DNA from: a virus
Lineage: Duplodnaviria; Caudoviricetes
Reading direction: 5' to 3' (one strand)
Virus record (IMG/VR): IMGVR_UViG_3300048026_000549
Span: 1-62,667 of that record
Length of the DNA: 62,667 bases
Below, piece after piece: positions 1,699-46,847 of the stretch. The notes under the pieces were generated by a model. That model worked only from the letters and a program-made list of their open reading frames with translations. It was not told the origin of the DNA and made no database searches. Positions within the stretch are counted from its first letter, which is position 1. Every line of letters begins with the position of its first letter. The position numbers were made by a program, and so were the translations under genes.

Positions 1699-2169
1699 TC
1701 AGTTGTCGGGGTACAGGCCGAAGCGTGGCGGGAAGGTACCTTCGCTGAAGACATAAGCCTCCAACTCTTGCACTTCCATCTGCATCATGTCCGTGTCCCA
1801 CAACACACCGGTGCTGTGTTGCAGTTCGTTCATGAGGTTGCAGATTGACCGGGCGGTTTTGACTGCCTCGGTGCTACCCTCAGCCACCTGTTCCAACACG
1901 GCTATGTACGCTTTGTACAACGGGAGGTATGTGCCCCGGTGCATTTCTGCGTAAGCCCTGTTGCTGGGTTGCTGTCGAGGCTGTGCCTCAACGGGTTGTT
2001 CATCTGCATGCTTTGCTTCGTTCCGTGCTCGCCACTCGGCTTGACGACGGATAGAGCAGGGACCATCACAGTCCAGTGCTCCTTCACTGTCGTCGAACGA
2101 ATGCGGTTGCTCAAGGCCTCCGCATTCCACCATGTAGCAAACCCGCATTTCTGGTTCTGGTTTGTCCAT
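1699..2169 (-). CDS. Hypothetical protein
   Basis: 156 aa; GGAGGTGA RBS upstream of the ATG. Confidence 0.65.
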   Translation of the reverse strand: MDKPEPEMRVCYMVECGGLEQPHSFDDSEGALDCDGPCSIRRQAEWRARNEAKHADEQPVEAQPRQQPSNRAYAEMHRGTYLPLYKAYIAVLEQVAEGSTEAVKTARSICNLMNELQHSTGVLWDTDMMQMEVQELEAYVFSEGTFPPRFGLYPDN

Positions 2170-2349: not shown

Positions 2350-5181
2350 TTAAGACCAACTGTACCATTCACCGTTGTTGTTAGCAACGATGTCATGCCA
2401 CTCCATGTCGAAGTCATCGACCATCTCGACCTTAACGGTGTCGTCGTCGAGGTCGGGGTCGAAGAGCCCTGCAAGTACCATAGCCATTGTGTCTGTGCAC
2501 ACATCGGGGGAGAAGTTCTTGCCGTCTTGCCACCGGAGTGGCAGGTCGTACTTGGACCCGTCCGGGCGGATGGCCATGTGTGATTGACCATCAAAGCCGT
2601 GGTACACTGCGTCTGCTGGCCATGACTGGTAGTACATCGCGTGGCGGGTGTTCCAGTTGGCACCGAGCATCTCGTTGTATGCGTTGTCGATTGCGTCGTT
2701 AAGGGCCATGTCGTCCCACTCGTATTGCATGAGTTGGATGGAAGCCACATTGACGGAGCCGATGGCACATGTGTCCGAGTCGCCGGTTGCTTTGGCTGGT
2801 GTCCTGTTCCACTGTGCGTATGTGCGCCAGTCGTATGACACACCTGCTGTGTCTGCACTGCCCTTGATGTGTCGGCTGGTTATCACACCATCGGGTGAGA
2901 TGGTGTACTCCTTGCCGATGGCACAAGCCCAACTGTTGTAGATGCGCTTGCCGTAGGCGTCGTGCAGATGCTTCTCAGTCGAGGCGACCACGATGATACC
3001 TGCGTCGGAGTCAAGGCGGCCCGCATGGAGCGGGTTGCCACCGTTAGTCCAGAACTTGAGTGTACCTGCTGGGTCACGAGCGTCGGACCAAATGAGGGAC
3101 ATTGAGCCCTCACACAGTTCGACCACCTTCTCGATGCCACCTGCTTCGAGGCAAGCGGCGACGGCTTGGCTGTCCACCGGACCAGTCTGTTTGGCGTCAA
3201 GCGCCTTCCAAACCGTGTCGTAGTTGTGAACCACACCGTTGTGCACGAGTGTCACATGGGCTTTGGGCCCGAAGTGAGGGTGTGCGTTGGCGGCGGTGTT
3301 TTTGCCGTGTGTCGCATACCGTGTGTGCATCATCATCCAAATGGTTGCCTTGCTGAAGTACTTCTTGAACAACTTCGGTGCAAGGGCCACACTGCTGGTT
3401 GGTGACTTTTGGTAGTACACTTCGCCATCGGTGGTCTTGAACCACGCCGCACCTGCCGCTTGGTTGCCACGGCTGGACAAGCCACTAAAGAGGCGTGTTG
3501 ATGCCTTCTTAGCGTTGTTGCCCTTGACGGAACCGGAGTGGACAAGACCGATGCCACACCCGACCAGTAGCGCCACTGCACCGATGAGAGGTGCTGTGAC
3601 AGCAAGGCCAAGCATGAACACTGCCAGTCCACCCATCTCGTAGGCGGTGGTGTGTGAGCGTGAACCCATTACAAGTTCTTCGCAACCACAGTAGGGGCAT
3701 TCCAAGTCTTCGCCATCATGTGGTGTGACAATGTAGTCGCCGGTGTCGTGTTCACTGAAGAACATCCGTAGGTAGTTGGCACTGAAGCGGTTTTCGTAGT
3801 TGTCTGCACTGAGTGAACTGCCGCAATCGTTGTTGTTGCAGTGGATGTAGGTGCTGGCAAGGTTGAGTTGGTTGTTCTCATCCAAGTTATTGAACTCTTG
3901 GAGAGCCGCCGCTCGGTCAATGAAGACCTCGCACTCACCGTGTACGCAGTGCGTTGAGCCGCATAGCACACACGCTGTTGTTGGTATGCCATGTAGCACG
4001 ACTGCTCGCTTCTCGTAGTAGTCACGGATGTGATGGTCCACTTCAAGGTCCATGAAGGCCCACATTGCGTCACGGGTGTTTGGTAGGTCGTCAAGCGAGA
4101 AGAAACCGAGGTAGTTGGTCTCGTCTTCGCAAGCCGCCACAAACCGTGTACAGAACTCGACCCAACGGCTGATTTTCATTGGGTTGACTGTGCCTTGATG
4201 TGCTCGGAACTCGATGGTACCGAATCCACGGGCAAACATTGACTTGAGGTTTAGGTGCTGGTAGCGTCCATGACCGGAGTGCCAGTCAAAGAGGTAGTGG
4301 TAGTGTTTGTCACCTGTGTGCTCAATCATCTCGTACTCGTCCGTGACATGGTTGTATGTGCGTCGTGTGTGCGAGGTGGCTGTGAAGACCATCTCACTTG
4401 GATGCATGTCCGGGTCGTGCAGATTGTGGGCTTGTGCGTACTGGTTGTCCCACCGGGATGATGGGAAAATCTTCTTCAAGTCGTGGAAGAAGAAAGACCA
4501 TGCGTATGCTACTCGTCCACCGATTGACTTGGCTTCGTCGTGCGACATCACACCATTGTCCCCAAACATTTCGTTGGGTTTTCTTAGTGCGACATGTGCG
4601 TGTAGCCCAGTCGTGGTGTTGATGCGGGCAATGGCTCGCAAGGGTTCTACTGTTTCAAGAATCCAAGCGGTCACTTCTGCCGGGGCAAGAGGTGGTGAGA
4701 CCACCTCGAAGCCGCCACTGCTGAGTGAACCATCCGTGGTGACACGGGTGATTCCGCCGGTGGTGCGACCTGCCATCCACTCCGAGGACTGGTGCGTGTG
4801 GTTGGTCTGCTCCGTTGGCTGTTCCACTGACCGAAGGTAGGCCCGCCGAGCGGCACGAGTTCGTCGTGCTTTGGCATTTTGACCTTGTACGAAGGACAGG
4901 AAGCGTTTGAAGGCCCCCGGTGCGTCTTTCGCTTTGTGAAGATTGAGCCAATGGGCTATCTTCTGGTTCGGTGCAGATTCAGCGTGTGCTTTGCGGATGG
5001 CCTCGATTTCGAGCCCGATGCCGTACATCTTGGTAGCGCCTACTTGTGCGTACTGCTTTCGTTCGTTCTTTCGCTGGACAGATGCGGATAGTATGGTAGC
5101 GGCCATGAGTACAAGTACCCAGCCCATTGCCAATACGAACCCGAGTCCGTCTGCTTCGTTCATCATTTGTGCGTTTTGCAT
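2350..5181 (-). CDS. Membrane-anchored putative amidoligase (COOH-NH2 ligase type 2) fused via Zn-finger/TM linker to a class II (Ntn) glutamine amidotransferase
   Basis: Ligase motifs GLEIE, TTDGSL, FEVVSPPL, TGLHAHV, RYQHLN, GTIEFRAHQGT. GATase-II motifs CGIG, HTRYATHG, NAHPH, VHNGVV, DSQ. AGGAGG places the start at 5181 rather than 5307. Confidence 0.85.
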   Translation of the reverse strand: MQNAQMMNEADGLGFVLAMGWVLVLMAATILSASVQRKNERKQYAQVGATKMYGIGLEIEAIRKAHAESAPNQKIAHWLNLHKAKDAPGAFKRFLSFVQGQNAKARRTRAARRAYLRSVEQPTEQTNHTHQSSEWMAGRTTGGITRVTTDGSLSSGGFEVVSPPLAPAEVTAWILETVEPLRAIARINTTTGLHAHVALRKPNEMFGDNGVMSHDEAKSIGGRVAYAWSFFFHDLKKIFPSSRWDNQYAQAHNLHDPDMHPSEMVFTATSHTRRTYNHVTDEYEMIEHTGDKHYHYLFDWHSGHGRYQHLNLKSMFARGFGTIEFRAHQGTVNPMKISRWVEFCTRFVAACEDETNYLGFFSLDDLPNTRDAMWAFMDLEVDHHIRDYYEKRAVVLHGIPTTACVLCGSTHCVHGECEVFIDRAAALQEFNNLDENNQLNLASTYIHCNNNDCGSSLSADNYENRFSANYLRMFFSEHDTGDYIVTPHDGEDLECPYCGCEELVMGSRSHTTAYEMGGLAVFMLGLAVTAPLIGAVALLVGCGIGLVHSGSVKGNNAKKASTRLFSGLSSRGNQAAGAAWFKTTDGEVYYQKSPTSSVALAPKLFKKYFSKATIWMMMHTRYATHGKNTAANAHPHFGPKAHVTLVHNGVVHNYDTVWKALDAKQTGPVDSQAVAACLEAGGIEKVVELCEGSMSLIWSDARDPAGTLKFWTNGGNPLHAGRLDSDAGIIVVASTEKHLHDAYGKRIYNSWACAIGKEYTISPDGVITSRHIKGSADTAGVSYDWRTYAQWNRTPAKATGDSDTCAIGSVNVASIQLMQYEWDDMALNDAIDNAYNEMLGANWNTRHAMYYQSWPADAVYHGFDGQSHMAIRPDGSKYDLPLRWQDGKNFSPDVCTDTMAMVLAGLFDPDLDDDTVKVEMVDDFDMEWHDIVANNNGEWYSWS

Positions 5182-14233: not shown

Positions 14234-16345
14234 ATGACAGAAGAAGCAGAAGTAGTGGAAGCACTACAATACGGCAAGCCGGGCAAAGACGATAAGCGCA
14301 AGACGCCCGCTAAACCAAGCGAGCGCCGCAAGGGTTCTAAGAAAAACAAGAAGGATTCGGCAAGCAAGCCCAACGACTCAATCAAGATGAGTGAGTCAAC
14401 TGAGGCCAGCATTCGCAAGTTAATGGAAGAGCACAACAAGAAAGACAAGGGTAGCAAAGCCTCTATGGGTATGCTAAAGTCAGTCTTTCGTAGGGGTGCT
14501 GGTGCTTTCAGCCGGAGTCACGCTCCTAACATGTCAAGAAACGGCTGGGGTCTTGCTCGAGTCAAAGCATTCCTATACCTTTTGCGAAACGGACGACCCA
14601 GCAACCCGAACTACAAGCAAGACAATGACCTTCTGCCAAAGTCCCATCCAAGAGCCGAAGAAGAATATGAAGATTGGGGTGAGCCTTTTGCCGCCGCCGA
14701 GTATCAAGGCAAAAAGGTCACTCTAAACAAACCATTCCGCACACAAGGTGGAAAGAAAAAGTTCGCCGTGTATGTACAGAACGGAGCAGGTCGAGTTATC
14801 ATCGTGCGCTTTGGCGACCCTAACATGGAAATTAAGCGTGACGACCCTAAGCGTCGAAAGGCATTCCGTGACCGACACGACTGTGCTAACAAGAAAGACA
14901 AGACCACACCCGGCTACTGGTCATGCCGCCAATGGTCCACAAACAAAGTCGAAGCCAATGCTGATAAGTCGGAAGAGTCCGTCGAGAGTAGTATGGGTTG
15001 CGGCGAAGTGGAAGCAGACTGTGGCTGTGGTTGCACAGGTCACTCAGTCGAAGCGGCTGAACCTAAGCCATCCGCCAATGAAACCCACGATGAGTACATG
15101 ACTCGTTGTCAAAAGGCTGGTTATTCCAAAGAGGAATGTATGGCCGCACACGAAGGCCACTCTTTCAAGGAAGAAGCCGCATACCACGACGATGAAAAGA
15201 AAATGAAAGCATCGGAGTGCGACGACGAATGTCCTATTGGCCAAGAGATGGTCAACGGGGAGTGCATTCGTGTTGCAGTCACCTGTGAAATCGAAATCGA
15301 CAGTATTGAGACTCGCATCGAGGCGAGCACCGGCAAGAGCGTCATGCGTATCACCGGTATTGCATTTACTGATGGAGTCAATAAGAACTCGTGGGGCATT
15401 CGCCCTGCTCTCGCACAGCGCCTTACCAACGATATGGTTGGCGCAGATGTGACACTCAACCACCCTAAGTCCGAGATGGGTCGCTTCCGACGCAACATGG
15501 ATGGCGGTGTGGATGAGGCTACTGTCGGTGTTGTCACCGAAGCATCATACCACCAAACAAACACTGGGTACCAAGTTCGATATGTAGCAGAAGTTCACCG
15601 AACAGAACTATTTGCTTCTCTTGAGTCTGGTCTATGGATGCGCCCCGAGTACGGCGTGTCAATTGGCGGCACAGGAATCCCAAGTGAAATTGTAGAAGCC
15701 ACCGAAGAAGGTGGACGACCAACCATGTGGTTCGCTGACGACTTTGCCTTTGACCATCTTGCTATTGTGCACCGCCCGGCGTACCCCGAAGCAAACATAG
15801 AATCGGTCAAAAAGGTCGAGGCATCAACAATGCTTAAGTACCAACCCGATGGTAGCACGGTTCAGTCGAAGGTGAATAAAATGACCGAAGAACAAATTGA
15901 ATCAACCGCATCCGAATTGGAAGCACTACAAGCAGAACTCGTCCTACGAGAAGCAAAAATTGCAGAATTTGAAGCCGCAGATGTCGCACGAGCAGAAGAC
16001 GCTCGTCTTGCTCTCGTTAGCAAGGCAACTGAAATGGGCCTAAAGGGTCACGAAGACTTCACTGCTGAAACACTTAACTCAGTTATCGCATCTTGGGAAT
16101 CCTCCCGACCTGCACCAGTCGCAGAACCTGCTGTCGAAATGGCACCAGTTGCACCAGCAAGCGAACCAGCAGTGGCTTCCGAAGAATCCGCTGAACCTGT
16201 TATCGCTAACTACCTAAATGGAAAGATGGTAGAATCCTCCGAATCCCTGTACGCACGATGCTACAACAGTTGGGCTAACGCCTACAACACTGTTATGGCT
16301 GGAGCCGACATGCAAAAGGCTAAATTGTACGAGGAACTTAACTGA
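14234..16345 (+). CDS. Polyprotein: basic internal-head-type domains + prohead protease + scaffold
   Basis: Protease motifs VTLNHP, VGVV, GVSIGG, DHLAIVHRPAYPEA; C-terminal coiled coil; lies between portal and MCP. Confidence 0.85.
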   Translation: MTEEAEVVEALQYGKPGKDDKRKTPAKPSERRKGSKKNKKDSASKPNDSIKMSESTEASIRKLMEEHNKKDKGSKASMGMLKSVFRRGAGAFSRSHAPNMSRNGWGLARVKAFLYLLRNGRPSNPNYKQDNDLLPKSHPRAEEEYEDWGEPFAAAEYQGKKVTLNKPFRTQGGKKKFAVYVQNGAGRVIIVRFGDPNMEIKRDDPKRRKAFRDRHDCANKKDKTTPGYWSCRQWSTNKVEANADKSEESVESSMGCGEVEADCGCGCTGHSVEAAEPKPSANETHDEYMTRCQKAGYSKEECMAAHEGHSFKEEAAYHDDEKKMKASECDDECPIGQEMVNGECIRVAVTCEIEIDSIETRIEASTGKSVMRITGIAFTDGVNKNSWGIRPALAQRLTNDMVGADVTLNHPKSEMGRFRRNMDGGVDEATVGVVTEASYHQTNTGYQVRYVAEVHRTELFASLESGLWMRPEYGVSIGGTGIPSEIVEATEEGGRPTMWFADDFAFDHLAIVHRPAYPEANIESVKKVEASTMLKYQPDGSTVQSKVNKMTEEQIESTASELEALQAELVLREAKIAEFEAADVARAEDARLALVSKATEMGLKGHEDFTAETLNSVIASWESSRPAPVAEPAVEMAPVAPASEPAVASEESAEPVIANYLNGKMVESSESLYARCYNSWANAYNTVMAGADMQKAKLYEELN

Positions 16346-18500: not shown

Positions 18501-21425
18501 ATGGCAGATAGATACTGGGTTGCTAAGGGATTAGTGGCGAACGCATCCGACACCTCCAGTTGGAATACAGCCCCGGACGGAGGTGGGTCTTCCGGCGTAC
18601 CTGCTCTTAATGATGTACTACACTTTGGTGATGAAGTGTCGGTGCAGACTGGAGTAGGCTTCGCTAAGTGCAATTATAACATTACCACTACCATAGAGCA
18701 TCTAAAGACATCAAGTGGCTACAACGGCGCAACAGTGACCTCTACGGACATTTCTTTCACAGCACCCGGCACTATAACCCACAGTCACTCTAATTGGGAG
18801 GACTTGGGGTTCAAGCAAGGTATGACCATCACAATATCGGGGGCCGCTAATGCCGCCAACAATCAAACCCGAGAAATCCAAGTAGTGACCAGCAACACTA
18901 TGACACTCTTGGGTTTGAGCCCTTCACTTGCTGACGAAGCGGCTGGTGCTAATGTGACAATAACATGTGACATTTCAATCGACATCACCGCTTCATTTAC
19001 TACCGACCTATTGACTCTCGATACTAAGATGCAAAACACAAGTGGTTCGGGAGTGACTATTACAATCAACGGTAATGACGCACCCTTCTATGTGACTAAT
19101 GGGTCAAACGCAGTCATTGAAAATGTTGACGACATAACCTACGACTATAACAACTCTTACCAGACTGTTATTTTTGATGATGGTCCTTATCCCATTGTAG
19201 TAGGTACTTCCAGTGACTTTACCCCGGAGTATCAAGCCCCCACATCCACTGACTTCGGTGCCGCAACCATGAGAACCTTGAGATTGGACTCGAGTTGTAC
19301 TTTCGCTCCTAACCCAAGCCCTGCGGCATCACCACGACTAAACAGCAGTAAGGTCTTCAACATTACTAAGACCAGCAACTTTCAAATACAACACAACACC
19401 TTTGACACAGGACTAAGTACATTTGCTTTCACACTCGACGCCAGCAATTGGACACTACCTATTAGCGGTGACACTTCCTATGGTGCTGGTACCTTTGTGT
19501 CAAAGTTCTATAACCTCATCATACGCACTCCCGATACTGCTGGGCATGTCACACTAATACCGAGTGACCGGACACTATCAGTCAACAGCCTAACTGTCGA
19601 GAGCGGAGCAGTCCTCCGTGGGCAGACTACTACGAACACCGGTACTACCAGCACGATATGCTCGGTTAGGCGACCATTGATTCAAGGCGCTTGGAACTTC
19701 TCACAACTATCCGATGGAGTGTATGTCTCAGTGCTGTCCGATTCTTTCCCAATCACACCGTCGAGTGGGGCCAAAGGACTGGTACAAATATCCAACGGTG
19801 CTGGTACCTTCTCATCCGATTCTAAATTGACATGGACCAGCGGCACATCCACCTTACTTGTTGATGGTAAATTGGATGTCACTGGACTAATTGACCCTAC
19901 GGGCATGCAGTTCGACAGGCAAGCGACCAATCCCGGCACTGCTGATACAGTGTGGGTGGACAATACCGGGTCACTAATGTTTGGAGCAAGCGCAGTTGGT
20001 GGTTCCGGCAGTCAAGGACCAGCCGGGCCAGCCGGACCACAAGGTCCAGCGGGAGCAGATGGGGCTGACGGAGCCGATGGCGCACAAGGTCCAGCCGGAC
20101 CAGCAGGTGCTACCGGAGCGGCTGGTGCAACCGGACCTGCGGGTCCACAAGGACCGGCGGGAGCGGCAGGTGCTGATGGAGCAGACGGCTCCGATGGTGC
20201 GACAGGCGCACAAGGCCCACAGGGACCGGCAGGGGCAACAGGACCGGCAGGTTCTAATGGCTCGGACGGAAGTGATGGTGCAGACGGTTCGGATGGAGCG
20301 CAAGGTCCACAGGGACCAGCAGGTGCGACAGGACCAGCAGGGCCTCAAGGACCGGCGGGACCGACCGGTGCTACTGGACCTCAAGGACCACAAGGCCCAG
20401 CCGGTAGTGGGGGTACGATTGACATTTCAGCACTTACAGCAGACACACAAATCCGAGACGCCGACCTAATTCTCATTGACGCGGCGGCTAATGGAACCAA
20501 TAGGAAAACCACATTTACCGAGGTCAAGGAGTGGATTCGTGGCGAAGGCCAACGGGTTGGTCGAGATGGTGGTGTCAACGAATTAAGGATTCGAGATTCA
20601 AGGGACGACGGAGATGTTCACCCCAACGAGTTCGTTAATCAGACTGTATCGTTTGACTTCACCGACGACATAACAGGCTCAACGAACTCTTGGGACTCGG
20701 TTATGACCATGAAGGGGTGGACTGATAACTACCGAGCATGGCAGATATGGTCTGCGGCGCATACAAGTTCGGGGTCCGTCGATACAGTGCCACTGTTCTT
20801 CCGTAGCGGAGAGGAAGATGTGCAAGACGGTTGGGGCCAAATAAAGGAGATTTTAACATTTCCCGGTACTGCTCCGAGAGTCGATGGTTCGGCAGGTCAA
20901 ATTCTACAAACCAACGGCAATGGCGTACTTTCTTGGGCTTCACTGCCTCCTACATCTCCCCCACCCATTACGGGCCAGTACGAAAAATACATACTTCAAC
21001 AGTCAATTTCAACGGGCGGAGGGACCATAACACTTGGATTCAATCCCAATGAACTATTCGGTACATACCAAACAGGTTCAGTGTCGGATTGGGCGGAGGG
21101 GCCGGACCACCTTGAAATCACCGCAGACGGGCTGTTCCAATTCACCTTCGGTGTGTTCGTAGATACACTTGGTGCAAATTCGGCTGAAACGCTATTTACA
21201 ATCTCAACCAACCCTTTTGCATCGGGCGACCTACTTTCGCACCGAAACAGAGGGGACACGGACAGGTTCACGGACACAGGGGTCACTACTGCATATTTGA
21301 CTGCTGGACAGCGTGTGTGGTTTGATGTTTCTTGTAATAGAACTCACGCAATCGGTGGCTTTGTACCCGGTCCTTTTGGACGGAATGAGGTCCGTACTTT
21401 CCTTGATGTAAGGAGGCTTGAATAA
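18501..21425 (+). CDS. Collagen-repeat fibre / receptor-binding protein
   Basis: Beta-rich N-terminus (DRYWV..SSWNT..GG..SGVP), long G-X-Y run, beta-sandwich-like C-terminus. Confidence 0.85.
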   Translation: MADRYWVAKGLVANASDTSSWNTAPDGGGSSGVPALNDVLHFGDEVSVQTGVGFAKCNYNITTTIEHLKTSSGYNGATVTSTDISFTAPGTITHSHSNWEDLGFKQGMTITISGAANAANNQTREIQVVTSNTMTLLGLSPSLADEAAGANVTITCDISIDITASFTTDLLTLDTKMQNTSGSGVTITINGNDAPFYVTNGSNAVIENVDDITYDYNNSYQTVIFDDGPYPIVVGTSSDFTPEYQAPTSTDFGAATMRTLRLDSSCTFAPNPSPAASPRLNSSKVFNITKTSNFQIQHNTFDTGLSTFAFTLDASNWTLPISGDTSYGAGTFVSKFYNLIIRTPDTAGHVTLIPSDRTLSVNSLTVESGAVLRGQTTTNTGTTSTICSVRRPLIQGAWNFSQLSDGVYVSVLSDSFPITPSSGAKGLVQISNGAGTFSSDSKLTWTSGTSTLLVDGKLDVTGLIDPTGMQFDRQATNPGTADTVWVDNTGSLMFGASAVGGSGSQGPAGPAGPQGPAGADGADGADGAQGPAGPAGATGAAGATGPAGPQGPAGAAGADGADGSDGATGAQGPQGPAGATGPAGSNGSDGSDGADGSDGAQGPQGPAGATGPAGPQGPAGPTGATGPQGPQGPAGSGGTIDISALTADTQIRDADLILIDAAANGTNRKTTFTEVKEWIRGEGQRVGRDGGVNELRIRDSRDDGDVHPNEFVNQTVSFDFTDDITGSTNSWDSVMTMKGWTDNYRAWQIWSAAHTSSGSVDTVPLFFRSGEEDVQDGWGQIKEILTFPGTAPRVDGSAGQILQTNGNGVLSWASLPPTSPPPITGQYEKYILQQSISTGGGTITLGFNPNELFGTYQTGSVSDWAEGPDHLEITADGLFQFTFGVFVDTLGANSAETLFTISTNPFASGDLLSHRNRGDTDRFTDTGVTTAYLTAGQRVWFDVSCNRTHAIGGFVPGPFGRNEVRTFLDVRRLE
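20013..20403 (+). repeat. Collagen G-X-Y coding repeat
   Basis: QGPAGPAGPQGPAGADGADG... about 40 triplets. Confidence 0.9.
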
Positions 21426-30292: not shown

Positions 30293-33200
30293 ATGCGAGA
30301 TGTGGACCGACGACTGACCTTTTGGATGGCTGGCTACTACGACGATTTCATCGGTGCTCGTGCAGTCCCCGACGACCAAAACATACAGGGCACTGACTGG
30401 CAGTCCTCCAAGACTCACCACGGCAACCCTATCAACGGCTGGGCGACACTCAATCCCCGCTACACCTACGCATGGTGTGAGCGAGGCGATGGTGCCACCA
30501 GTCGATTTAACAATTCCTCAGTCGCCGCCGCAGACCAATACAAACACAACGCAGGTATTCACGAGTGGCTAACCTACGACCAAAACCGCAGGGAGGCTGG
30601 CAAATACGAAGGTCTTGCTCAACTCCAATATCCCGACTCACTCTCCAACGCTAACCGCCAGCGATTCGACGGTGGCACAGGTATTATTGGTTCGGCATAT
30701 AAGGGGACTGATGTCAACGATGGCTTCCTCATGTTCTGCTACGGCTATGATACCACGAACCGATACTTCTCGGCCATCGGTACTAACGACAGTACCTTCG
30801 GTCGAGCGACCTCACGCATCCCCGACTACAACGGTGGTTCACCAAACACTCTCGACCCAACGGCTGGAATACCAACTGGTGTGTCCACACCTACTACCGC
30901 AGTTCGCACACACCTTGCTGGTGTGTACTCGGGCGAAGTCCTATTCAACGATGCTTATACCGGCAGTCTTCCTAAAGCGTACCTGTACCCCATCAAGTCC
31001 CCAGCAGGTAAGCCATTCTTGGTCACGGAAGTGTACACTTCTTCTGCCTCCTACATCCCTATCTTTTCATACGACGGTACACTCAACTCCAAAGGCGACG
31101 GTGACATATTTACCATCCGAATCCACGCCACAGCGGTTGATACATCCGCCGCTCGACTCAAGTTGAGAATTGGTTGTGAGGGTACAGCCTTCACCAGCAC
31201 CGGTAGTGGTGACACAGGCTACACCAACGCCGCCATTGAGTACGAAATCACACCAGTAGCGTATCAAGAAAGCACCTCACTATCCTACGCCAGTCCCCCG
31301 ACACTCGATTCTATTTGGGACGACTATGATTTTGTGATTGACTACACAAACAACCGATACACCCTATACAAAAATGGCACTGCTATCCTCACAAACCAAG
31401 CCATGACCAACAAGGCTGACGGGAGTGCCTTCACAGCGGCAGATATGTACGGCTGGGAGGTCGATGCTAAAAGTTGCTCTAAGAAGGCCGCTATGCTCAT
31501 TGACCGTGTTGGGCTGGTTAGACCCCTTAACGACTATCCGAGTGGCTTAGAGATGCCTCCAGCGACCTCTATGCGGTGGTCTGCCGGAGTCAACAGTGTT
31601 TCGTCACTATCACTCGACCTAATTGACGACGACCAACAACTAAAGTTGCTCTCATTCTTCAACCAATCGTCTTATGCCGACTGGTCACTTCTCATGTTCC
31701 GGGGGGACATAGCCCGCCCTGTTTGGCGAGGTAGCGTAAATGGTATGCGATACACCCAATCGGCAACTGACCGAACTCCTAAAATCACCCTTGATGCTTC
31801 CGACTATTTTAGCAACATGGACACACAACTACCTACTTGGGAACTTGGGAACAGTGGTGACGCTGACAGTACCTCAGTCGTGGCATACAACCGCAGTGAG
31901 TCGCAGAACAACCTCAACACCTACTACTTCGGGGCCTCTCGTCTTATATCGTCTAACGCTGGTCTTGGATTCAACGAAGTCGAGGACGGGTCCGGGGTAT
32001 TCCTTGCTCACAAGGATAGTCGAATGCGAAACCGCTCCGCTCACCCAATCCAAATGTACTGCAACGAGGACACCACGCTCGGACCCAACACGCCCTACGC
32101 TGATTGGGACGCCGCTTGTGTTGCTACCGATGCAACCGCTTCCGCTCAATACCGAGCACTACACTCTCGCTGGATGCTGGACCTCAAAGAATCGGCTTGG
32201 TTCAAACACATGTTTGGTCGAATCGAAAAAGACGCAATCACTACTACACTGTCCTCCAACTTCACAGTCGGTGACACAAGCATAGCCCTCACTGACTACT
32301 GTGGCAATCTGCTGAACGGTGGTAGCATTGAAATCATAGACCCCGATGGCTTTGTGGATTCTGGCGTGGTGACAAGCGCCACTAATACTACTGCCACAAC
32401 AATCGTGGCAATTGATTGGGTGGCTATTAACCAACTAACAATGAAGAGGGTGGGGGGTCTTGTCACATTCTCAGCATCTAACCCGGAATACCACGCTTTC
32501 GTGTATCTCCCAGCGTCAATAGGTGCTACCGTAGCAAATACAGTCATAACCATATCGGGGTCGAGCAACAGTAATTTGAACGGACAATGGTATGTTCGTC
32601 GGGCGCATTTGCCCGATGCAACCGGAGCACAACAACTACTTGTTAATCGCAATGGAGTCAATTGCGCTCGATTTACTATCTCGGACCCTGTGACTCGACA
32701 TCAAAATTTTGTTCCATCAGCAAATTACTCGCCAATTACGGGCCACAGCAACACATGTACTTTCCCACGAGGCAAAGTGTACACCACTAATCCCACACAA
32801 TCCTTCGCAACTCCTTCGCCCATGATAGGTCTAAACAAGGTAGTCGAAGTAGTCCCAACTGCTGGAGTCACTCAATATCAAGGGACTACGGCGGTAGCAC
32901 CAGCCACCAACTTCTTCCAGCGTGACCACGCAAGCGGCACGACCGTCAAGATTAGGGACTTCAAAGAAGACTACAAGCACATTTGGGTTATGTGGGCAGA
33001 CATGAGAAACGATGGTTCAGCCAACGCAGACGCAAACCTACGCAAGAATGACTTCGGACTACTGGCCCCATACGCATCGAACTACTCGGTATCATTGGTA
33101 TATGCTGATTCTAACACCACGACCGGTGAAGAGCGACAGGAGTTCATTGATTTGTCTATTGGTCCCGACTTGACTATGTGGTCTATGGATGCTGAAAAAG

Positions 33201-36200
33201 ACCCCATCACCGGCAACACATGGTCTTCTGCTGGCTCGGACTCATTCACACCTGCCTCATTCGCCGGTTCGGACAACACTCGATACCAAAATTGGCAAGA
33301 CAAGGCTGGGTCATTCATTATTCTCGACACATCCCCTTTCTTCAATCTAAACACACAAAGCAACGGTGGCCGCACCGGACAAATTGCCGGTGGTAGGAAA
33401 GAAGTTGGCGACTACCTCGTCGAAACCGAAGGATTCCCTGTGCTTATCGACAACTATTGGGTCAAGGCACCAACAGGACCATACAATCTCGACGAAGCAG
33501 ACTCCGACAGTTGGAACTCCAACTACAAATTCTTCAACAGCGCATTCACAACGCTCGCTGAGGACATACAGGTAGGCGACCAAGTTATCCAACTCAATGA
33601 CGATATTATCAAGTTCCCACTTGAAGACACAAACCCCACACTTGCTGGTCAAATTGTATCTCACGAGAAGAATAAAATTTTCCACTTCGCCGCAGACCTA
33701 AAAATACCAGCCAAGAACGGAATAACAGTCACTTATGTGAGCAACAACATTGTGAAATTGACAGGAACAGGTTTGAGTGGTGTCACATTCAAAGGAAATA
33801 ATTTGCGAGCAGGGCATCACATCATTATCACCAACTCCACTACTACGCCATCCATTGACGGAACCTACGAGATAATCGCTGACAATGGCGTTCGTACACT
33901 TCTTGGTTATGAACTGCAAATTGATGTGGGCGTAGCAGTGACCTCAAATGGACAATGCACATTTGATGTTGCATTCCCCACCTACATGGTTGATGCCATC
34001 AGTGATTTGGGTAAGCCAAACCCTTCCAGCACACAGCCGGGAGATTGGAATGGTGCCGCATACGGAGGTACCAGTCAATCAACAGCGCAAAGTGCCGAGG
34101 CACTTATCTTTGCCAAAGGACAGGTGTATTCGGAGGTCGCTATCAGCACTGACCCGGATGTCGAAAATTCCTACCCCGATGCAACAGTCTATGTTGGACT
34201 GGCACAGGTCTTCCCAATGCGAATGATGATGCAGGTGGATGGGTTTATCGAGAATAAGGCCAGCATGACTCACACTGACAGTGACAAGTTCCGAGTATCG
34301 TACCTCGACTCACTCACTGACAACTGGCTACAACAATCCACACTATACGGCATACCATCTCTCGCATCCATCCCCCTCACAAACAGCATGACTACAAGTC
34401 AATTGAGTGTGGCACAGGGAGGGCTTGGTGGGTATATTGCATCAACAAGTGCTACGAGTGGTACTAAGGTCATAGTAGTGGGCGACAACACGCATGAACC
34501 ACCGGAACTCCAACCCGGTGATATTATTGAGATTGTGGACAATGCTCAACTCAGTGATGCAACAGACAACTACCGAACTCGCTATGTTGTGACGGATGTA
34601 TTTTATGGGGGTAGTCCTTTCAACTTTAGAATCACAGCCGCAGGTAAGACTGCGACAGTCGGTGATGGTTATTGGAGGAAGGTTGGGCAGATTGACACCT
34701 TCGCAACGGTCAATGACTGTCGAAACACAAGCATCGCCAACATTTACTCGACTACTCAACAAGGTAGTGGGGTTGGTATCGAGGACTCATCACGCTCAGT
34801 AATGTCTTGGTTGATGGGTCGAGACTCACAGCCCTCATTCCGCCCGACATACAGCAACGGAATTGTACTGACTCGTGATAACCTACGGGTTTCTAACCTC
34901 ACAACAGAAGGCAGTACGCAGATTTCAAATGTTAGGGTGTTTTACGCCGGAGGAACATCTTATGTGGACTTCCCATCGGCAACACTCGGCACTAAACCAC
35001 GCTGGGAAATGATTCATGTCCCCAAAGTGACCTCAAGCAACGAAGCAATGGTTATCGCCAAGCAAGAGTACGCCAAGAATAGAATGGCTCCTATGTCAAT
35101 CAACGCCACCATGCTAAGATTCAACAACAATAACACTCTCGACGGACTCAACGACCTAATGCTCAGTGATGCTCGCTACGGTTATGTGGCTGACCAATCA
35201 CGCACAATCCCCCGCACATCCACGGTTGCTGGAGCGTACACCGAAGACAAAGCATGGGCTTGGTTCTCACTATGGGGCGGTAATCTCTTCCCCGGAATAC
35301 AAAACGCTCTTGATGGTCGAGATGGCGCTACTCTCAGTCACATTGGTACGCCTCTACTACTCGACTACGACGAAAATTACTACTGGTACGGTGCTAACTC
35401 AGTGTCGTATGCTATGCAGATTGTGCATATCCCAAAGGGTATGCCGAAGACCACTGATAAAACGCCGGGAGCGGGTAAATACAACGCTGACGGGCACTTG
35501 CGTATCGTGATTGATATTGAGGACGGGCAAGGTTCCTACGCTGACATCAACAATACAATCTTCCGAGTTAGACTGCTCGATTATGATTGGGATGCTGGCA
35601 TTCTCGGAGCAGTTCCTACACTACGGAGCAGTACCTCGGTCAGTGTTGCTGGCAACGGCTACTACCAACTGGCTATACCGAGCACATATTGGGCCGCACA
35701 GGACAGTACGGAGCGCATTGTCGTGTCAATCAATCACGACTACTTGGTGTCTTTGGTACGACAACGCTGTGGTACATCCAACACGCATCTAAATTCTCAC
35801 GACTGGGCTGGTGTCACCTACACTGCCGGATTCAATGTTGATAGCATCTTCCCACTCGGAGCACGAAAGTTCGGAGAGGCTGATTATTGGAACAAGAACA
35901 GTGAGTGGTACGCACCACGCCTACATATCGTGGACGACCTCAACTTCATGCCAGCGACAACGCTGACATACACCGATGCGGCGCTTGAACTGAGCAACGA
36001 AAAAATGTCAATCAAGTCACTGGATTGGGTTATCGACGGTCGAGGTACTGAGCAAGTCAATCTTAAGTTGGAGAGAGATGTGTCGAGAGCGGCCAAGAAC
36101 TTCGCATCATACATCCTACCCCGAGTGTCTCGTGGAGGACAGCAGTCTGCTGGACAAGGCAATCAAGGCGGTGGCACTGGTGGTGGTAGCGATGGTCAAT

Positions 36201-37030
36201 CGACCAGCGGTGGTACTACTGGTGGTCGAGGCGGAACAAGCGGCGGAGAGCCGAGTGGCGGCAACTGGAGAGATTGGGGAGGCTGGGGTGACGGCGGAGC
36301 GGCTCAAACAAGCAGTTCGGAACTGAACCCTAACACCACACCGGGTCGAACCAACCTACCGGACGGTCTAAGTGGGGCAATCGGAAGCGCGTTGACCACC
36401 ACTTCGTCTTCGATGGGTACACTCCTTCGCAACAGGGTCAGTGGTACTATGAACTTCAACAATGATAGCGTGACTGGTGGGTCATTTGGCGTCCTCGGAC
36501 AAACAAAGACCTCGCCACCACCAAGAGATTCGTCGGGTATCAGCGGCATAGACTCATTCATCACACCATCTTCGGGTGACGCAGTGATGGGCGAGGATGG
36601 TATGACCTTCCCCGGCGGTGGAACTGACGCAGGTTGGGCATCCCCACCTACACGATTCAATATCACGGCAAGAATCCCAGCAGGGGCTGTGAGCAAGTCG
36701 GTGAGAGTCATGGGTAGGGTCAGCATGGCTGGTGCTGGTCAAACAGCAGTGCTTCTTGTCACTGTGAACTGCAATGAATCATCACGAGTGTACGAGCGAA
36801 CAGTCAATATCACCGAGATAGAGCGAGGCAATGTAGTCTTGTTCACCGGAGATGTCGATGGCGCAGATGTAGCCAGCAACACACTGAGCATCACCATTGA
36901 AAGAAACCCAGCGACAGGCGACGACGACGCCAAATATGCGTCGGTTCAGTTGCACAATGTACAGGTTGCCACTGACAATCGTGCGGTGCAAGGCTCTTCC
37001 GAATCCTCGTCCTACTCCTACTCGGAGTGA
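30293..37030 (+). CDS. Giant tail-tip/baseplate hub-adhesin protein
   Basis: 2245 aa, T/S/G/N-rich and beta-rich, directly after TMP; Gly-rich linker near 36130-36300. Confidence 0.7.
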   Translation: MRDVDRRLTFWMAGYYDDFIGARAVPDDQNIQGTDWQSSKTHHGNPINGWATLNPRYTYAWCERGDGATSRFNNSSVAAADQYKHNAGIHEWLTYDQNRREAGKYEGLAQLQYPDSLSNANRQRFDGGTGIIGSAYKGTDVNDGFLMFCYGYDTTNRYFSAIGTNDSTFGRATSRIPDYNGGSPNTLDPTAGIPTGVSTPTTAVRTHLAGVYSGEVLFNDAYTGSLPKAYLYPIKSPAGKPFLVTEVYTSSASYIPIFSYDGTLNSKGDGDIFTIRIHATAVDTSAARLKLRIGCEGTAFTSTGSGDTGYTNAAIEYEITPVAYQESTSLSYASPPTLDSIWDDYDFVIDYTNNRYTLYKNGTAILTNQAMTNKADGSAFTAADMYGWEVDAKSCSKKAAMLIDRVGLVRPLNDYPSGLEMPPATSMRWSAGVNSVSSLSLDLIDDDQQLKLLSFFNQSSYADWSLLMFRGDIARPVWRGSVNGMRYTQSATDRTPKITLDASDYFSNMDTQLPTWELGNSGDADSTSVVAYNRSESQNNLNTYYFGASRLISSNAGLGFNEVEDGSGVFLAHKDSRMRNRSAHPIQMYCNEDTTLGPNTPYADWDAACVATDATASAQYRALHSRWMLDLKESAWFKHMFGRIEKDAITTTLSSNFTVGDTSIALTDYCGNLLNGGSIEIIDPDGFVDSGVVTSATNTTATTIVAIDWVAINQLTMKRVGGLVTFSASNPEYHAFVYLPASIGATVANTVITISGSSNSNLNGQWYVRRAHLPDATGAQQLLVNRNGVNCARFTISDPVTRHQNFVPSANYSPITGHSNTCTFPRGKVYTTNPTQSFATPSPMIGLNKVVEVVPTAGVTQYQGTTAVAPATNFFQRDHASGTTVKIRDFKEDYKHIWVMWADMRNDGSANADANLRKNDFGLLAPYASNYSVSLVYADSNTTTGEERQEFIDLSIGPDLTMWSMDAEKDPITGNTWSSAGSDSFTPASFAGSDNTRYQNWQDKAGSFIILDTSPFFNLNTQSNGGRTGQIAGGRKEVGDYLVETEGFPVLIDNYWVKAPTGPYNLDEADSDSWNSNYKFFNSAFTTLAEDIQVGDQVIQLNDDIIKFPLEDTNPTLAGQIVSHEKNKIFHFAADLKIPAKNGITVTYVSNNIVKLTGTGLSGVTFKGNNLRAGHHIIITNSTTTPSIDGTYEIIADNGVRTLLGYELQIDVGVAVTSNGQCTFDVAFPTYMVDAISDLGKPNPSSTQPGDWNGAAYGGTSQSTAQSAEALIFAKGQVYSEVAISTDPDVENSYPDATVYVGLAQVFPMRMMMQVDGFIENKASMTHTDSDKFRVSYLDSLTDNWLQQSTLYGIPSLASIPLTNSMTTSQLSVAQGGLGGYIASTSATSGTKVIVVGDNTHEPPELQPGDIIEIVDNAQLSDATDNYRTRYVVTDVFYGGSPFNFRITAAGKTATVGDGYWRKVGQIDTFATVNDCRNTSIANIYSTTQQGSGVGIEDSSRSVMSWLMGRDSQPSFRPTYSNGIVLTRDNLRVSNLTTEGSTQISNVRVFYAGGTSYVDFPSATLGTKPRWEMIHVPKVTSSNEAMVIAKQEYAKNRMAPMSINATMLRFNNNNTLDGLNDLMLSDARYGYVADQSRTIPRTSTVAGAYTEDKAWAWFSLWGGNLFPGIQNALDGRDGATLSHIGTPLLLDYDENYYWYGANSVSYAMQIVHIPKGMPKTTDKTPGAGKYNADGHLRIVIDIEDGQGSYADINNTIFRVRLLDYDWDAGILGAVPTLRSSTSVSVAGNGYYQLAIPSTYWAAQDSTERIVVSINHDYLVSLVRQRCGTSNTHLNSHDWAGVTYTAGFNVDSIFPLGARKFGEADYWNKNSEWYAPRLHIVDDLNFMPATTLTYTDAALELSNEKMSIKSLDWVIDGRGTEQVNLKLERDVSRAAKNFASYILPRVSRGGQQSAGQGNQGGGTGGGSDGQSTSGGTTGGRGGTSGGEPSGGNWRDWGGWGDGGAAQTSSSELNPNTTPGRTNLPDGLSGAIGSALTTTSSSMGTLLRNRVSGTMNFNNDSVTGGSFGVLGQTKTSPPPRDSSGISGIDSFITPSSGDAVMGEDGMTFPGGGTDAGWASPPTRFNITARIPAGAVSKSVRVMGRVSMAGAGQTAVLLVTVNCNESSRVYERTVNITEIERGNVVLFTGDVDGADVASNTLSITIERNPATGDDDAKYASVQLHNVQVATDNRAVQGSSESSSYSYSE

Positions 37031-37728
37031 CGGTCGGGTTGGTCGGGATAGCGTTCTCGCAGTGAGAGGATTGCCTTTGCTCTCTTGCGACCTATGCCGT
37101 CAATCTGCATGAGTTGGCGCTGGCTTGTCCTCGCTCTTAGAATACGAGGTAGCGACCCGAACTCAGTGAGAAGGTCGTGAGCCGCTCGCTCGGAGATACC
37201 CTCGATAGCAGTGAGAGCCGCTACTCTTGCATCCACGCCACGAACTGCTTTCTTCTGTACTTCCGGTGGTTCAGCAGTAGTGATACCACGGATTCGCAGA
37301 TTGTGGTGCATGGCGTTGAGCCAGTCAACAAAGTCGTCCATGCTCGGGACTTCCATGTACTGAATGTTGGGGAACATGACGCAGAAGGTTTGCTTGAATT
37401 TTTTTATGACCGCTTGCATTTTTTTATGCTCTCGGGCCACTGCGCCCCTGTTTCCACCACGGACATAGGGTTTCAACTTGGTGTTGTACACGACAAGCAT
37501 TGGCTTCTCGAAAGTATCGTTGAGTTCGTGCAGTTGTCCCATGATTGTACGGCTTCTACCGTGTCCCATGATTGAGTGATACAGGTCGTTAATCTCTTTG
37601 GCCTCAATGCCAATCTCACCGATGATGTAGTCGGCAGATTTCAAACGCTTGACCTTCACATGGTCGCCCATAGCAACCAGCAATTTATGTTTCAAAAGGT
37701 CATTCTCACGGTCGTCCACTACCAGCAT
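37018..37728 (-). CDS. ERCC4/XPF-family structure-specific nuclease with HhH
   Basis: VVDDRE, ADYII, IEAKEINDLYHSI, two HhH motifs (IEGIS, IDGIG). Confidence 0.9.
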   Translation of the reverse strand: MLVVDDRENDLLKHKLLVAMGDHVKVKRLKSADYIIGEIGIEAKEINDLYHSIMGHGRSRTIMGQLHELNDTFEKPMLVVYNTKLKPYVRGGNRGAVAREHKKMQAVIKKFKQTFCVMFPNIQYMEVPSMDDFVDWLNAMHHNLRIRGITTAEPPEVQKKAVRGVDARVAALTAIEGISERAAHDLLTEFGSLPRILRARTSQRQLMQIDGIGRKRAKAILSLRERYPDQPDRHSE

Positions 37729-37760
37729 CAAACCTACCAAGCACTATGCTTATATGAGGG

Positions 37761-38837
37761 TCATTGAGAGTTGGGCACCTTCGCAGTGCCGTCATAACGC
37801 CAGCACTTACCAGCACACATACCACGAGCCACGAACCAAGCACACGACGGCACACGGCTGTATCTCATGGTCGTCTTTATGCCTTTACGGGACTGTGTTG
37901 GGTTCCAGTTAGACCAACCAAGACCCTTGATGTAGTCAAAAATCTCATCTTCTATTTTCTCACGCTGTTCTTTGCTCAGTGACTCGGGATTAGCAAAGTC
38001 CCGCAGGTTGTCAGCCATGTGTTGCACGAGTGCTACACGAACATGGTGATTAGGCTTGTTCTTATGCACCTCACGGGCCAAGCAGGGCATCAGTGGTACT
38101 GTACCAGCGGTGAGGGTTTTATCGTCCAATTCAACGCTGTCTGCGAAAGAATAATCCTCGGCCTCGGGAGCGTACTTTTCAGCCCAACCTATGAAGTCAA
38201 AGTGGTTGTTCGCTGGCAAAGTGCTGTGGATGCCAAACGGATGCAGGGTGCGAGGCAAACGCTGTGGTGATTTAGGGATTACAAAGTTGTCCGGGTCTGC
38301 GGCAAAGGCATGAGCGTCGATAACCACACACCATCGTCCCCTCTTGGGGTTGTAGGTGTTAGGTATGCGAGTCATTTTTTCGGGGAAGCCTACGCCATCG
38401 AGCGTGGCAAGTCCCTTAGCCTTGCGGCGTTGGTAGTGCTCAAGACTCAATCGGTACTCCGGTCCACAGACAGATTCGTTGAACAATTGGTGGACATGAA
38501 AGCCACGCCCTGTGGCAACAAGTCGTATGTCACCGTCCAAACGCTTGATGAGTTCAGCAACATCTTGCTTGACCTGTTCGATTCCGCCTCGTTCTCCCGC
38601 ATCAAAATCCCACCATGCTCTATCAATTATTGCGTATCGGTAGTCCGGCTTGTTGTGTTCGTTTTTTCGTGCAAAGGAGTATAGGCTTGTGTAGCATGAG
38701 GTCTTACTTCTCATGTTGTCAAGGTATCGCTTGTATTGATGTTGGCTGTGGACGATTGTTCTTTTGAGGCCGATTTCCCGAGGGAAGTTCAGCAGACTCA
38801 AATATGTCCCCTCCACTTGTGTCCACATTCCTTGCAT
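37761..38837 (-). CDS. Archaeo-eukaryotic primase, PriS-PriL fusion
   Basis: WDFD, TGRGFHV, RIPNTYN; C-terminal PCL..NHHVR..PSC..C..C Fe-S ligands. Confidence 0.88.
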   Translation of the reverse strand: MQGMWTQVEGTYLSLLNFPREIGLKRTIVHSQHQYKRYLDNMRSKTSCYTSLYSFARKNEHNKPDYRYAIIDRAWWDFDAGERGGIEQVKQDVAELIKRLDGDIRLVATGRGFHVHQLFNESVCGPEYRLSLEHYQRRKAKGLATLDGVGFPEKMTRIPNTYNPKRGRWCVVIDAHAFAADPDNFVIPKSPQRLPRTLHPFGIHSTLPANNHFDFIGWAEKYAPEAEDYSFADSVELDDKTLTAGTVPLMPCLAREVHKNKPNHHVRVALVQHMADNLRDFANPESLSKEQREKIEDEIFDYIKGLGWSNWNPTQSRKGIKTTMRYSRVPSCAWFVARGMCAGKCWRYDGTAKVPNSQ

Positions 38838-38947
38838 GTGTGCACAATAAGCATCTTCTCTTCACCACCAATCTGCCCGGTCACGAGCATCATGGCGTCT
38901 GTTTGGTGGTCTTGGCTACCGCATTCCGGGCATGTTTCTTTGTTCAT
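38798..38947 (-). CDS. Small zinc-ribbon protein
   Basis: CPECGS...CKECGHKW. Confidence 0.65.
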   Translation of the reverse strand: MNKETCPECGSQDHQTDAMMLVTGQIGGEEKMLIVHTCKECGHKWRGHI

Positions 38948-38951
38948 GTTT

Positions 38952-40484: not shown

Positions 40485-40514
40485 ATTACTCACTTTGCCT
40501 ACGCCACTATATAG

Positions 40515-44672: not shown

Positions 44673-44673
44673 T

Positions 44674-46799: not shown

Positions 46800-46847
46800 G
46801 TCTAAACCTCTATTTTCTTATCTATCTCCGCCACTATATAACCCTGT

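Follow-up and report, generated by a model that had tools for sequence, protein, structure and literature searches.

A viral ligase–glutamine amidotransferase fusion with its predicted catalytic cysteine behind a hydrophobic leader

To our knowledge, all active class II glutamine amidotransferases (GATases) use the free amino group of an N-terminal cysteine, Cys1. The IMG/VR virus record IMGVR_UViG_3300048026_000549 (62,667 bases, analysed over its full length and referred to here as the window) encodes a class II GATase domain in the second half of one long chain, with the cysteine at residue 542 behind a carboxylate-amine ligase domain and a hydrophobic helix. This raises the question of how such a cysteine could become an N-terminal residue. 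We propose that the protein is a membrane-tethered GATase zymogen that cleaves itself on the cytoplasmic side of the membrane in the manner of N-terminal nucleophile (Ntn) hydrolases, a proposal to which we give about an even chance. Judged from the sequence, the need for a cleavage as such is well founded.

The gene lies on the minus strand in an open reading frame (ORF) that runs from position 5307 to 2350. The first ATG is located at 5181 and yields a product of 943 amino acids plus the stop codon (2350–5181). The start Met at this position is common to the homologues, and one cluster representative in our protein search (P0002) is 100% identical to the product. Kyte-Doolittle window means exceed 1.6 only at residues 9–36 and 515–552. 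A first transmembrane helix, TM1 (residues ~12–36, 5074–5148), is followed by the ligase domain (residues ~52–400, 3982–5028), a Cys-rich module (residues 404–500, 3682–3972), a second hydrophobic helix or leader ending in LLVG (residues 517–541, 3559–3633, Kyte-Doolittle values of 2.0–2.4), the GATase domain (residues 542–790, 2812–3558) and a C-terminal domain of unassigned function (residues ~810–943, 2353–2754). AlphaFold2 modeled the whole protein with a mean pLDDT (predicted local distance difference test) of 81.4 and a pTM (predicted template modeling score) of 0.54, and placed helices at residues 14–41 and 518–537. An earlier note, made from the letters of the window and their translation, had described a single ORF of this composition, with an internal CGIG cysteine at codon 3556–3558 in the context GAVALLVG-CGIG. 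Pfam, hydropathy and AlphaFold2 bear out every element of that layout, and the cysteine lies exactly at this codon, with CGIG starting at residue 542.

The GATase assignment is based on several independent comparisons. Pfam GATase_6 matches residues 609–709 (2.8e-14, 53.7 bits versus a cut-off of 27); GATase_7 and GATase_4 likewise score above their cut-offs, and the GATase matches together span residues 566–740. A PDB profile search retrieved GlmS at 3e-17, and Foldseek found the glutaminase domains of GlmS, GFAT and PurF at E-values of about 1e-12 (1xff_B with a TMt of 0.70). The GlmS and PurF matches in NCBIfam were all sub-threshold. A pairwise alignment with E. coli GlmS equates R621, T624, H625, N648, G649 and D670 with R73, T76, H77, N98, G99 and D123, respectively, which we take to be the residues of glutamine binding and of the oxyanion hole. 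In an alignment of 97 family sequences R621, T624, N648, G649 and D670 are invariant, and the full glutamine-site set is conserved to at least 90%. Position 2 of the PHROG GATase profiles aligns with residue 542; in the standalone relatives, profile column 457 is residue 2 of the protein. By alignment, Cys542 thus is at the canonical position of the Ntn nucleophile, and the domain looks like a competent glutamine or γ-glutamyl amidohydrolase. With all glutamine-site residues kept, a cut between Gly541 and Cys542 naturally suggests itself.

The ligase part was recognized by Pfam Amidoligase_2 at residues 271–348 (4.8e-11, 43.4 bits versus a cut-off of 22), a match which covers only positions 173–245 of the 245 profile positions. 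The hidden Markov model search proposed in the earlier note as a check on both enzymes therefore gave scores above cut-off for each. Folded alone, the ligase domain reached a pLDDT of 74 and a pTM of 0.76. A Foldseek search with this model gave no match at E ≤ 0.001. In a VIA-align wide comparison the top 18 rows (Z = 8.8–12.5) all represent carboxylate-amine ligases with a glutamine synthetase fold. The best one is the YbdK-like structure 1tt4 (Z = 12.5, root-mean-square deviation 4.3, 224 aligned residues), and the others include glutamine synthetases I and III, γ-glutamylmethylamide synthetase (GmaS), γ-glutamylcysteine synthetase (γ-GCS), Dop (Z = 10.2) and PafA (Z = 9.8). Below the top 18, lengsin from the glutamine synthetase family follows with Z = 6.0 and unrelated rows do not exceed 4.8. 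The modeled ligase domain is accordingly of the glutamine synthetase/γ-GCS-type fold. Its identity to PafA/Dop, YbdK, γ-GCS and glutamine synthetase is 9–15%, a kinship at the level of the fold which does not imply a Pup-like tag. Ten residues (E58, E60, D150, S152, E159, H194, H196, R306, E324 and R326) are invariant in the 97-sequence alignment; E58, E60, E159, H194, H196, E324 and R326 are of the kinds expected for metal and ATP binding, as judged from residue type rather than from a mapping onto a solved ligase.

The Cys-rich module between ligase and leader contains strict CxxC motifs starting at residues 404 and 495 and additional cysteines at 412, 417, 448, 453 and 500. C404, C407, C412, C417, C495 and C498 are conserved to at least 90% in the same alignment, the model is confident in this region (pLDDT 84–93), and from this cysteine pattern the module probably binds Zn. 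For the C-terminal end of the protein (residues 800–943) we found no match in Pfam and no usable match in an Atlas search.

Is the fusion real? A search over 5.8 billion proteins defined a family of 105 cluster representatives (P0002–P0106, E ≤ 4e-82) of 542–1129 amino acids, which are 30–100% identical and share the same layout; the next matches beyond them are GlmS sequences at about 1e-8. PF12224 is precomputed in 96 of these 105 homologues, in each case together with PF13522. Clustering at 50% identity leaves about 26 fused clusters among the 405 matches at E ≤ 1e-30. Many of the representatives are located on contigs of 55–63 kb. A hydrophobic stretch runs up to the cysteine in all 105, and the N-terminal helix is present in 98, the remaining seven having shorter N-termini. 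In a MAFFT alignment C542, G543, G545 and H548 are invariant in 105 of 105 sequences and I544 is found in 104. The leader itself is conserved at G525 (92 of 105), P531 (91), L538 (91), V540 (92) and G541 (96). The earlier note had asked for conservation of the Gly-Cys pair: this holds for the cysteine without exception, and for the glycine in 96 representatives, with Ala in five and Asn in four of the others. The gene also recurs with little change in seawater metagenomes, with at least half of its sampled words present in 16 of 24 listed runs. A DNA contig from an independent run (X6) spans 3255–4369 with neither insertion nor deletion. In two RNA libraries the contigs cover 14 (X17) and 7 (X18) of 30 bins, the uncovered parts being uninformative, and one from X17 bridges 3509–3732 across the Gly541/Cys542 site; in both libraries DNA carry-over is possible.

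That two adjacent genes were joined by a sequencing or assembly error has a negligible probability: ligase and GATase genes are indeed separate in most phages, but the fusion is conserved in cluster representatives from many sources and in 22 fused loci in viral contigs or metagenome-assembled genomes (MAGs), DNA contigs from other runs read through it uninterrupted, and no Met precedes the Cys, so that this explanation is ruled out. The single chain of TM1, amidoligase, Cys-rich module, second helix and class II GATase is thus, on the sequence evidence, real and conserved. It belongs to a large, virus-only family in which the Ntn cysteine always lies behind a hydrophobic leader, a picture broader than could be seen from one genome. 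Two of the findings named beforehand as refuting the idea, a variable cysteine or homologues that are always split, did not occur. Among phage isolates the ligase half gave one weak match, the whole protein was covered to at least 80% in 0 of 200 records, and no cultured relative was found.

Central to the argument for cleavage is a comparison of relatives. We collected 82 viral or MAG loci with a relative, in which an ORF was considered only if it lay on the same strand as the match. Ligase and GATase share one ORF in 22 of them, and 60 are not fused. All 22 fused ORFs have a hydrophobic 20-mer (Kyte-Doolittle 1.77–2.50) before the Cys as well as the extra C-terminal domain. The latter is found in none of the 60 unfused loci, 31 of which have a ligase ORF on the same strand within the flank; profile matches to this domain are thus confined to the fused ORFs among the 82 loci, and the split leader-bearing forms described below carry it too. 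The Cys could be placed by script in 56 of the unfused loci and directly follows a Met in 55 and an Ile in one (L069). The closest soluble pairs (L065, L077 and L086) have no TM helix and GATases that start with IMCGLIGY. Similarly, the GATase of the cultured Proteus phage 3H10_20 reads NMCGIV, and gp06 of the OM43 phage MEP401 starts with MCIAIM and adjoins the soluble ligase gp05. Among the best 150 library representatives 40 start with Met-Cys, and in 25 the Cys is preceded by a hydrophobic 14-mer; most of the remaining 85 are fragments or proteins with the ligase only, along with a few fused forms below the hydrophobicity threshold. Since leaderless relatives begin with Met-Cys in 55 of 56 cases, a free Cys1 is the rule in this clade. 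As far as sequences can tell, a GATase without leader starts with Met-Cys and a GATase with leader never does.

Two loci show a start-site peculiarity. In Escherichia phage KBNP1711 (L001, 4100–4111) the GATase coding sequence is annotated from a GTG that lies downstream of the catalytic Cys codon and so lacks this Cys. With TAG AAA ATT TGT in this frame, the ATT that directly precedes the Cys codon is the probable start of the GATase. L069 (NII-CSITGF) resembles this case.

Shorter relatives of 353–372 amino acids begin with a hydrophobic segment. They fall into a subgroup with the motif CGIGAYH that comprises 20 loci with a placed Cys: 11 fused, eight split and one truncated where its contig ends. 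The ligase ORF of the split loci, containing TM1 and the Cys-rich module, terminates with ECEC just before the helix, and the GATase ORF starts with a leader of 16–18 hydrophobic residues followed by Asn-Cys or Gly-Cys. The Cys is therefore residue 17–20 of the gene product, compared to residue 542 in the fused protein. The leader is MLMLLSLLLPLAILVN, directly followed by CGIG, in L088, L101, L102 and L104 (with one residue different in L102 and L104), slightly longer than this type in L099 and L100, and MSLFILMMVAPIALMVG, again followed by CGIG, in L090 and L091. In L088 the GATase ATG overlaps the ligase stop codon by 7 nt in another frame and a GGAGGA is located 6 nt upstream. In L090 a single in-frame TGA separates the two parts, with an ATG directly after it (L090 1440–1452). 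In both L090 and L091 ligase and GATase lie in the same frame, one TGA apart and with no further in-frame TGAs, and read-through would restore the fusion.

A maximum-likelihood tree of the GATase parts was calculated for 30 rows, consisting of 17 of the 20 loci and 13 family representatives (L093 and L098, which are duplicates, and L103, which is cut, were left out). Split groups lie nested within the fused forms, and the fused/split label required two changes in 200 of 200 bootstrap trees. The tree thus indicates two independent fissions, in which the chain was cut between ligase and helix and not in front of the Cys. The leader was kept across both fissions and therefore belongs functionally to the GATase; consequently, the Cys would have to be freed in fused and split forms alike. 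Two distant proteins have the same arrangement: P0395 (1288 amino acids) is fused and reads LLIN-CGIGG with the Cys at residue 772, and P0335 (351 amino acids) is a split form that starts with MILFAIVAAIGLMVG followed by CGVGG. Neither has a His at position +6 from the Cys. A GATase with a leader is thus not confined to the close family.

Based on these comparisons and the model we propose the following course of events. TM1 would act as a reverse signal-anchor that holds the ATP-dependent carboxylate-amine ligase at the membrane; the Cys-rich module comes next in the chain, and then the leader of 23–25 hydrophobic residues, which leads directly into Cys542. The GATase would be made as a zymogen. 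After folding at the membrane, the thiol of Cys542 would attack the carbonyl group of residue −1 in an N-to-S acyl shift. Breakage of this bond would turn Cys542 into residue 1, with the free amino group needed for catalysis. The leader would remain membrane-embedded, forming the C-terminus of the ligase chain in the fused forms and a small peptide in the split forms, and both catalytic domains would reside on the cytoplasmic face.

Self-cleavage of the preceding peptide bond by the nucleophile has a general precedent in the Ntn hydrolases, and for class II GATases self-processing is known from the propeptide of B. subtilis PurF and the presequence of GltB. Our literature search on propeptide or Ntn processing of class II GATases gave nothing useful. 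An invariant Cys at +1 together with a variable, mostly small residue at −1 (Gly or Ala, Asn in four representatives) fits self-cleavage. The model also appears to count for it: the first strand of the GATase (residues 543–548) is predicted with confidence, and the segment just before it (residues 529–539) has a pLDDT below 50. An internal translation start at Met516 was considered as a source of a shorter GATase and rejected, as the window has no Shine-Dalgarno motif upstream of this codon and a Met is found at this alignment column in only 44 of the 105 representatives.

The cytoplasmic side is favored by the charge distribution, by the ATP requirement of the ligase and by the Cys-rich module preceding the leader. 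On average, the 15 residues after the first strand contain 4.51 Lys and Arg and 0.12 Asp and Glu, and the 15 residues before the helix contain 0.50 and 2.82, respectively; Lys and Arg are more frequent on the C-terminal flank of the leader in 102 of 104 sequences. The flanks of TM1 are similar (0.12 Lys and Arg before, 4.27 after, with the C-terminal flank higher in 97 of 97). Its acidic N-terminal and basic C-terminal side predict an N-terminus outside and a C-terminus inside. The nearest soluble pairs have no TM helix; as partners, the two enzymes thus shared one compartment.

Several points weigh against self-cleavage at the cytoplasmic face. Both helices show the charge signature of an outside N-terminus and an inside C-terminus, which the two helices of an uncleaved chain could not both follow. 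Fused and split forms would most simply share a topology with the N-terminal end of the leader inside and its C-terminal end outside, which would export the GATase. Soluble relatives starting with Met-Cys, e.g. MCGIAGFSLSKKSKINSRK, also have the basic stretch behind the Cys; this stretch is therefore not a dedicated topology signal. A permanent anchor would fit a leader with conserved residues such as G525 and P531, kept through two fissions, at least as well. The topological conflict could be resolved by a re-entrant or interfacial leader, which G525 and P531 would fit, by a leader that is inserted as a tail anchor once cleavage has taken place, or by export.

The alternative that the chain is never cleaved is unlikely. 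The leader would then be a permanent anchor or linker, and the GATase fold would either follow a non-canonical mechanism with its internal Cys or serve as a regulatory module or one that binds glutamine or γ-glutamyl groups. AlphaFold2 does model the chain uninterrupted, the leader is conserved in sequence (L538 and V540 in addition to G525 and P531) and has survived both fissions, and H548, at +6 from the Cys, is invariant in the 105 representatives and absent from the listed Met-Cys relatives. This histidine, however, is located where the first strand ends and not beside the Cys, and it is missing in P0335 and P0395. The established need of active class II GATases for the amino group of Cys1, the Met-Cys starts of the leaderless relatives and the fully conserved catalytic set argue against an uncleaved enzyme. 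We consider it improbable that the leader is never removed in the specific sense of a first class II GATase fold working with an internal Cys and kept at the membrane by its leader, beside the ATP-dependent ligase, or of a leader acting as a membrane-sensing latch, with the glutaminase switched on only after insertion. Both would violate the requirement of Ntn amidotransferases for Cys1.

Export followed by a host peptidase is rather unlikely. Here the helix would be inserted with its N-terminus inside and its C-terminus outside, and the exported GATase would be cut between Gly and Cys by LspA after the action of Lgt, or by signal peptidase I. The earlier note had named a membrane peptidase as one of two routes, pointing to the resemblance of LVGC to a lipobox. 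Indeed, the sequence L-V-G-C matches the lipobox core (PROSITE PS51257, [LVI]-[ASTVI]-[GAS]-C), the residue at −1 is Gly or Ala in 101 of 105 representatives, and bacterial lipoprotein precursors also have a hydrophobic stretch ending in [LVI]-x-[GA]-C. The split forms with their hydrophobic N-terminus of 16–18 residues resemble pre-proteins, the orientation is the only one that suits fused and split forms without special pleading, and in periplasmic penicillin V acylases the Ntn Cys is exposed by signal-peptide removal.

Several details speak against this route, though. Asn, which fits neither signal peptidase, occupies position −1 not only in four representatives but in whole fused and split subclades. 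In the fused protein the site is internal, at residue 542 rather than near the N-terminus, and the leaders of the split forms have no Lys or Arg ahead of the hydrophobic helix; lipoproteins have their Cys behind a basic stretch and no more than about 35 residues from the N-terminus, a combination found neither in fused nor in split forms. The same holds for an exportable mature part with a thiol free for lipidation: the flank after the first strand is strongly basic (mean Lys and Arg of 4.51, as above) and the thiol is the predicted nucleophile. Cutting by LspA requires prior alkylation of the Cys thiol by Lgt, whose diacylglycerol would then sit on the nucleophile. Export would moreover leave the ATP-dependent ligase partner across the membrane, although the closest relatives are soluble cytoplasmic pairs, and neither Lgt nor LspA would be expected if the host were archaeal. 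Processing at a lipobox by LspA is therefore unlikely; it was the weakest part of the earlier note, and self-cleavage is the best-supported mechanism.

Cleavage at or near the Gly-Cys bond by another viral or host protease, for example an intramembrane or membrane-proximal one, is very improbable. It would account for the conserved surroundings of the site (LLVG-CGIG) but nothing points to it specifically. The 22 fused loci show no linked protease gene, and a −1 residue varying between Gly, Ala and Asn before an invariant +1 Cys points to the Cys as the agent.

The protein resembles several known systems in part. In B. subtilis PurF, with its propeptide of 11 residues, and in the large subunit of glutamate synthase the Cys is likewise not residue 2 and is uncovered after translation. 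These propeptides are short and soluble, whereas here the Cys comes after 541 residues that comprise a complete enzyme and a membrane helix; in the split forms the leader is reduced to 16–18 residues but is purely hydrophobic. In γ-glutamyltranspeptidase, penicillin and cephalosporin acylases and the proteasome β subunits the nucleophile attacks the preceding bond, as proposed here, and a small −1 residue (Gly) is typical of the proteasome subunits. Both chains of the two-chain Ntn hydrolases form one fold; in the present protein the upstream piece is an independent ATP-dependent ligase. Compared to bacterial lipoprotein precursors the differences are the internal site, the missing basic stretch before it, the clades with Asn at −1, the basic segment after it and the catalytic role expected for the thiol.

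Phage pairs of a PF12224 ligase and a class II GATase are known from Escherichia phage KBNP1711 (gp087/gp086), Privateervirus, Arthrobacter phages and OM43 phage MEP401 (gp05/gp06). In these, the two are separate genes for soluble proteins and the GATase starts with Met-Cys, in contrast to the single chain described here, in which the Cys is internal and which also contains two hydrophobic helices, a Cys-rich module and an additional C-terminal domain. In the accessible portions of PMC10580990 and PMC11706807 amidoligase and GATase are called auxiliary genes, citing Iyer et al. 2009, and a role of such pairs in cell-wall modification or superinfection exclusion is only speculated. The accessible portions of these two papers and of PMC2938197 and PMC4431377 contain no mention of a fused or membrane form; Iyer et al. 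2009 may describe fused architectures. The pair of enzymes is thus the known part, and the membrane-anchored fused precursor with a leader before the Cys appears, from its sequence, to be new.

What the two enzymes do can be stated with less confidence. They may make or trim γ-glutamyl-type amide bonds on a membrane-associated substrate, to which the two helices point. In one option ammonia derived from glutamine would be fed to the ligase, which would amidate a carboxylate; in the other, a γ-glutamyl amide would be built and later hydrolyzed. MurT/GatD, AsnB1/LtsA and EgtA/EgtC likewise combine an ATP-dependent, carboxylate-activating ligase with a glutamine or γ-glutamyl amidohydrolase. MurT/GatD, which acts on a membrane-bound substrate, and LtsA amidate wall precursors and are an analogy for the first option. 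EgtA/EgtC, a γ-GCS-type ligase with a class II GATase-like γ-glutamyl hydrolase, attaches and trims, as in the second option. The ligase families differ, since MurT is of the Mur type and AsnB is adenylating, and homology is seen only in the GATase or the glutamine synthetase fold.

A third enzyme of γ-glutamyl chemistry could be provided by a viral γ-glutamyl(amine) cyclotransferase of the GGACT/AIG2-like type (48375–48803, minus strand, PF06094 at 2e-21), which is encoded far from the fused gene. A cyclotransferase is also present in all five of five related viral records carrying the fused gene, and in KBNP1711 a γ-glutamyl cyclotransferase lies in the neighborhood of the pair.

Directly downstream of the fused gene, an ORF of 156 amino acids (1699–2169, minus strand) is a candidate partner or substrate; it is syntenic in 11 of the 22 fused loci. 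Its N-terminal motif (C-x4-EC-GG..QPH..DCDGPCS..RR) was found in 10 of 42 loci, and its C-termini fall into the groups CYWKQ, GLYP[DS]N and HC[ST][IM]H. Scans of Pfam, PHROG and NCBIfam gave no family match. The Gln and Asn ends recall Pup, an analogy which is speculation.

Of the auxiliary phage genes that lack an explanation, amidoligase/GATase pairs are some of the most common, and the present family gives them a membrane location. If self-cleavage of the GATase is true, this prokaryotic virus would make a polyprotein of enzymes that its own Ntn nucleophile resolves, and a new kind of zymogen for a long-studied enzyme class. The lineage consists of widespread, uncultured marine tailed viruses with genomes of ~60 kb that are abundant in seawater, and the substrate could bear on the ways in which marine viruses alter the envelopes or the metabolism of their hosts.

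The record, whose completeness is estimated at 98%, is that of a tailed virus according to its gene content (large terminase, portal, tail tube and tape measure). Bases 1–390 recur at 62278–62667 with seven mismatches, as a terminal direct repeat or a circular overlap, which gives a unit of 62,277 bases; IMG/VR classifies the record as linear without end repeats. The window further encodes a family B DNA polymerase, an RFC-like ATPase, an ERCC4+HhH nuclease and a PD-(D/E)XK nuclease. The replication module (37018–47744, minus strand), with the ERCC4+HhH nuclease, the family B polymerase and the RFC-like AAA+ ATPase, has an archaeal/eukaryotic flavor.

The earlier note presumed a host without peptidoglycan; the indications on the host are weak and mixed. 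The polymerase is closest to those of haloarchaeal tailed viruses, and the large terminase matches phiH and Firmicute phages equally weakly, with identities of 22–25% for both proteins. Polymerase, RFC-like ATPase and ERCC4 nuclease hint weakly at an archaeal virus. A protein 84% identical to the fusion is encoded on a 61,226-base contig in a MAG labeled Opitutales, and a 34% identical relative occurs in a Parvibaculum MAG. No peptidoglycan hydrolase domain was detected by Pfam in 51 ORFs of the window or by PHROGs in 21, a weak negative.

No tRNAs were found in the window, and megablast gave no match for the segment 9345–21425 (12,081 bases). Homologues of the ERCC4 protein show 48–98% identity across the 120 listed, many of them on contigs of ~60 kb. 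An ORF of 2245 amino acids (30293–37030, plus strand) after the tape measure gene is without a Pfam match. The same applies to an ORF of 703 amino acids (14234–16345, plus strand), which matches only PHROGs of unknown function. A further ORF of 974 amino acids (18501–21425) matches tail-fibre PHROGs, including collagen-like minor tail families.

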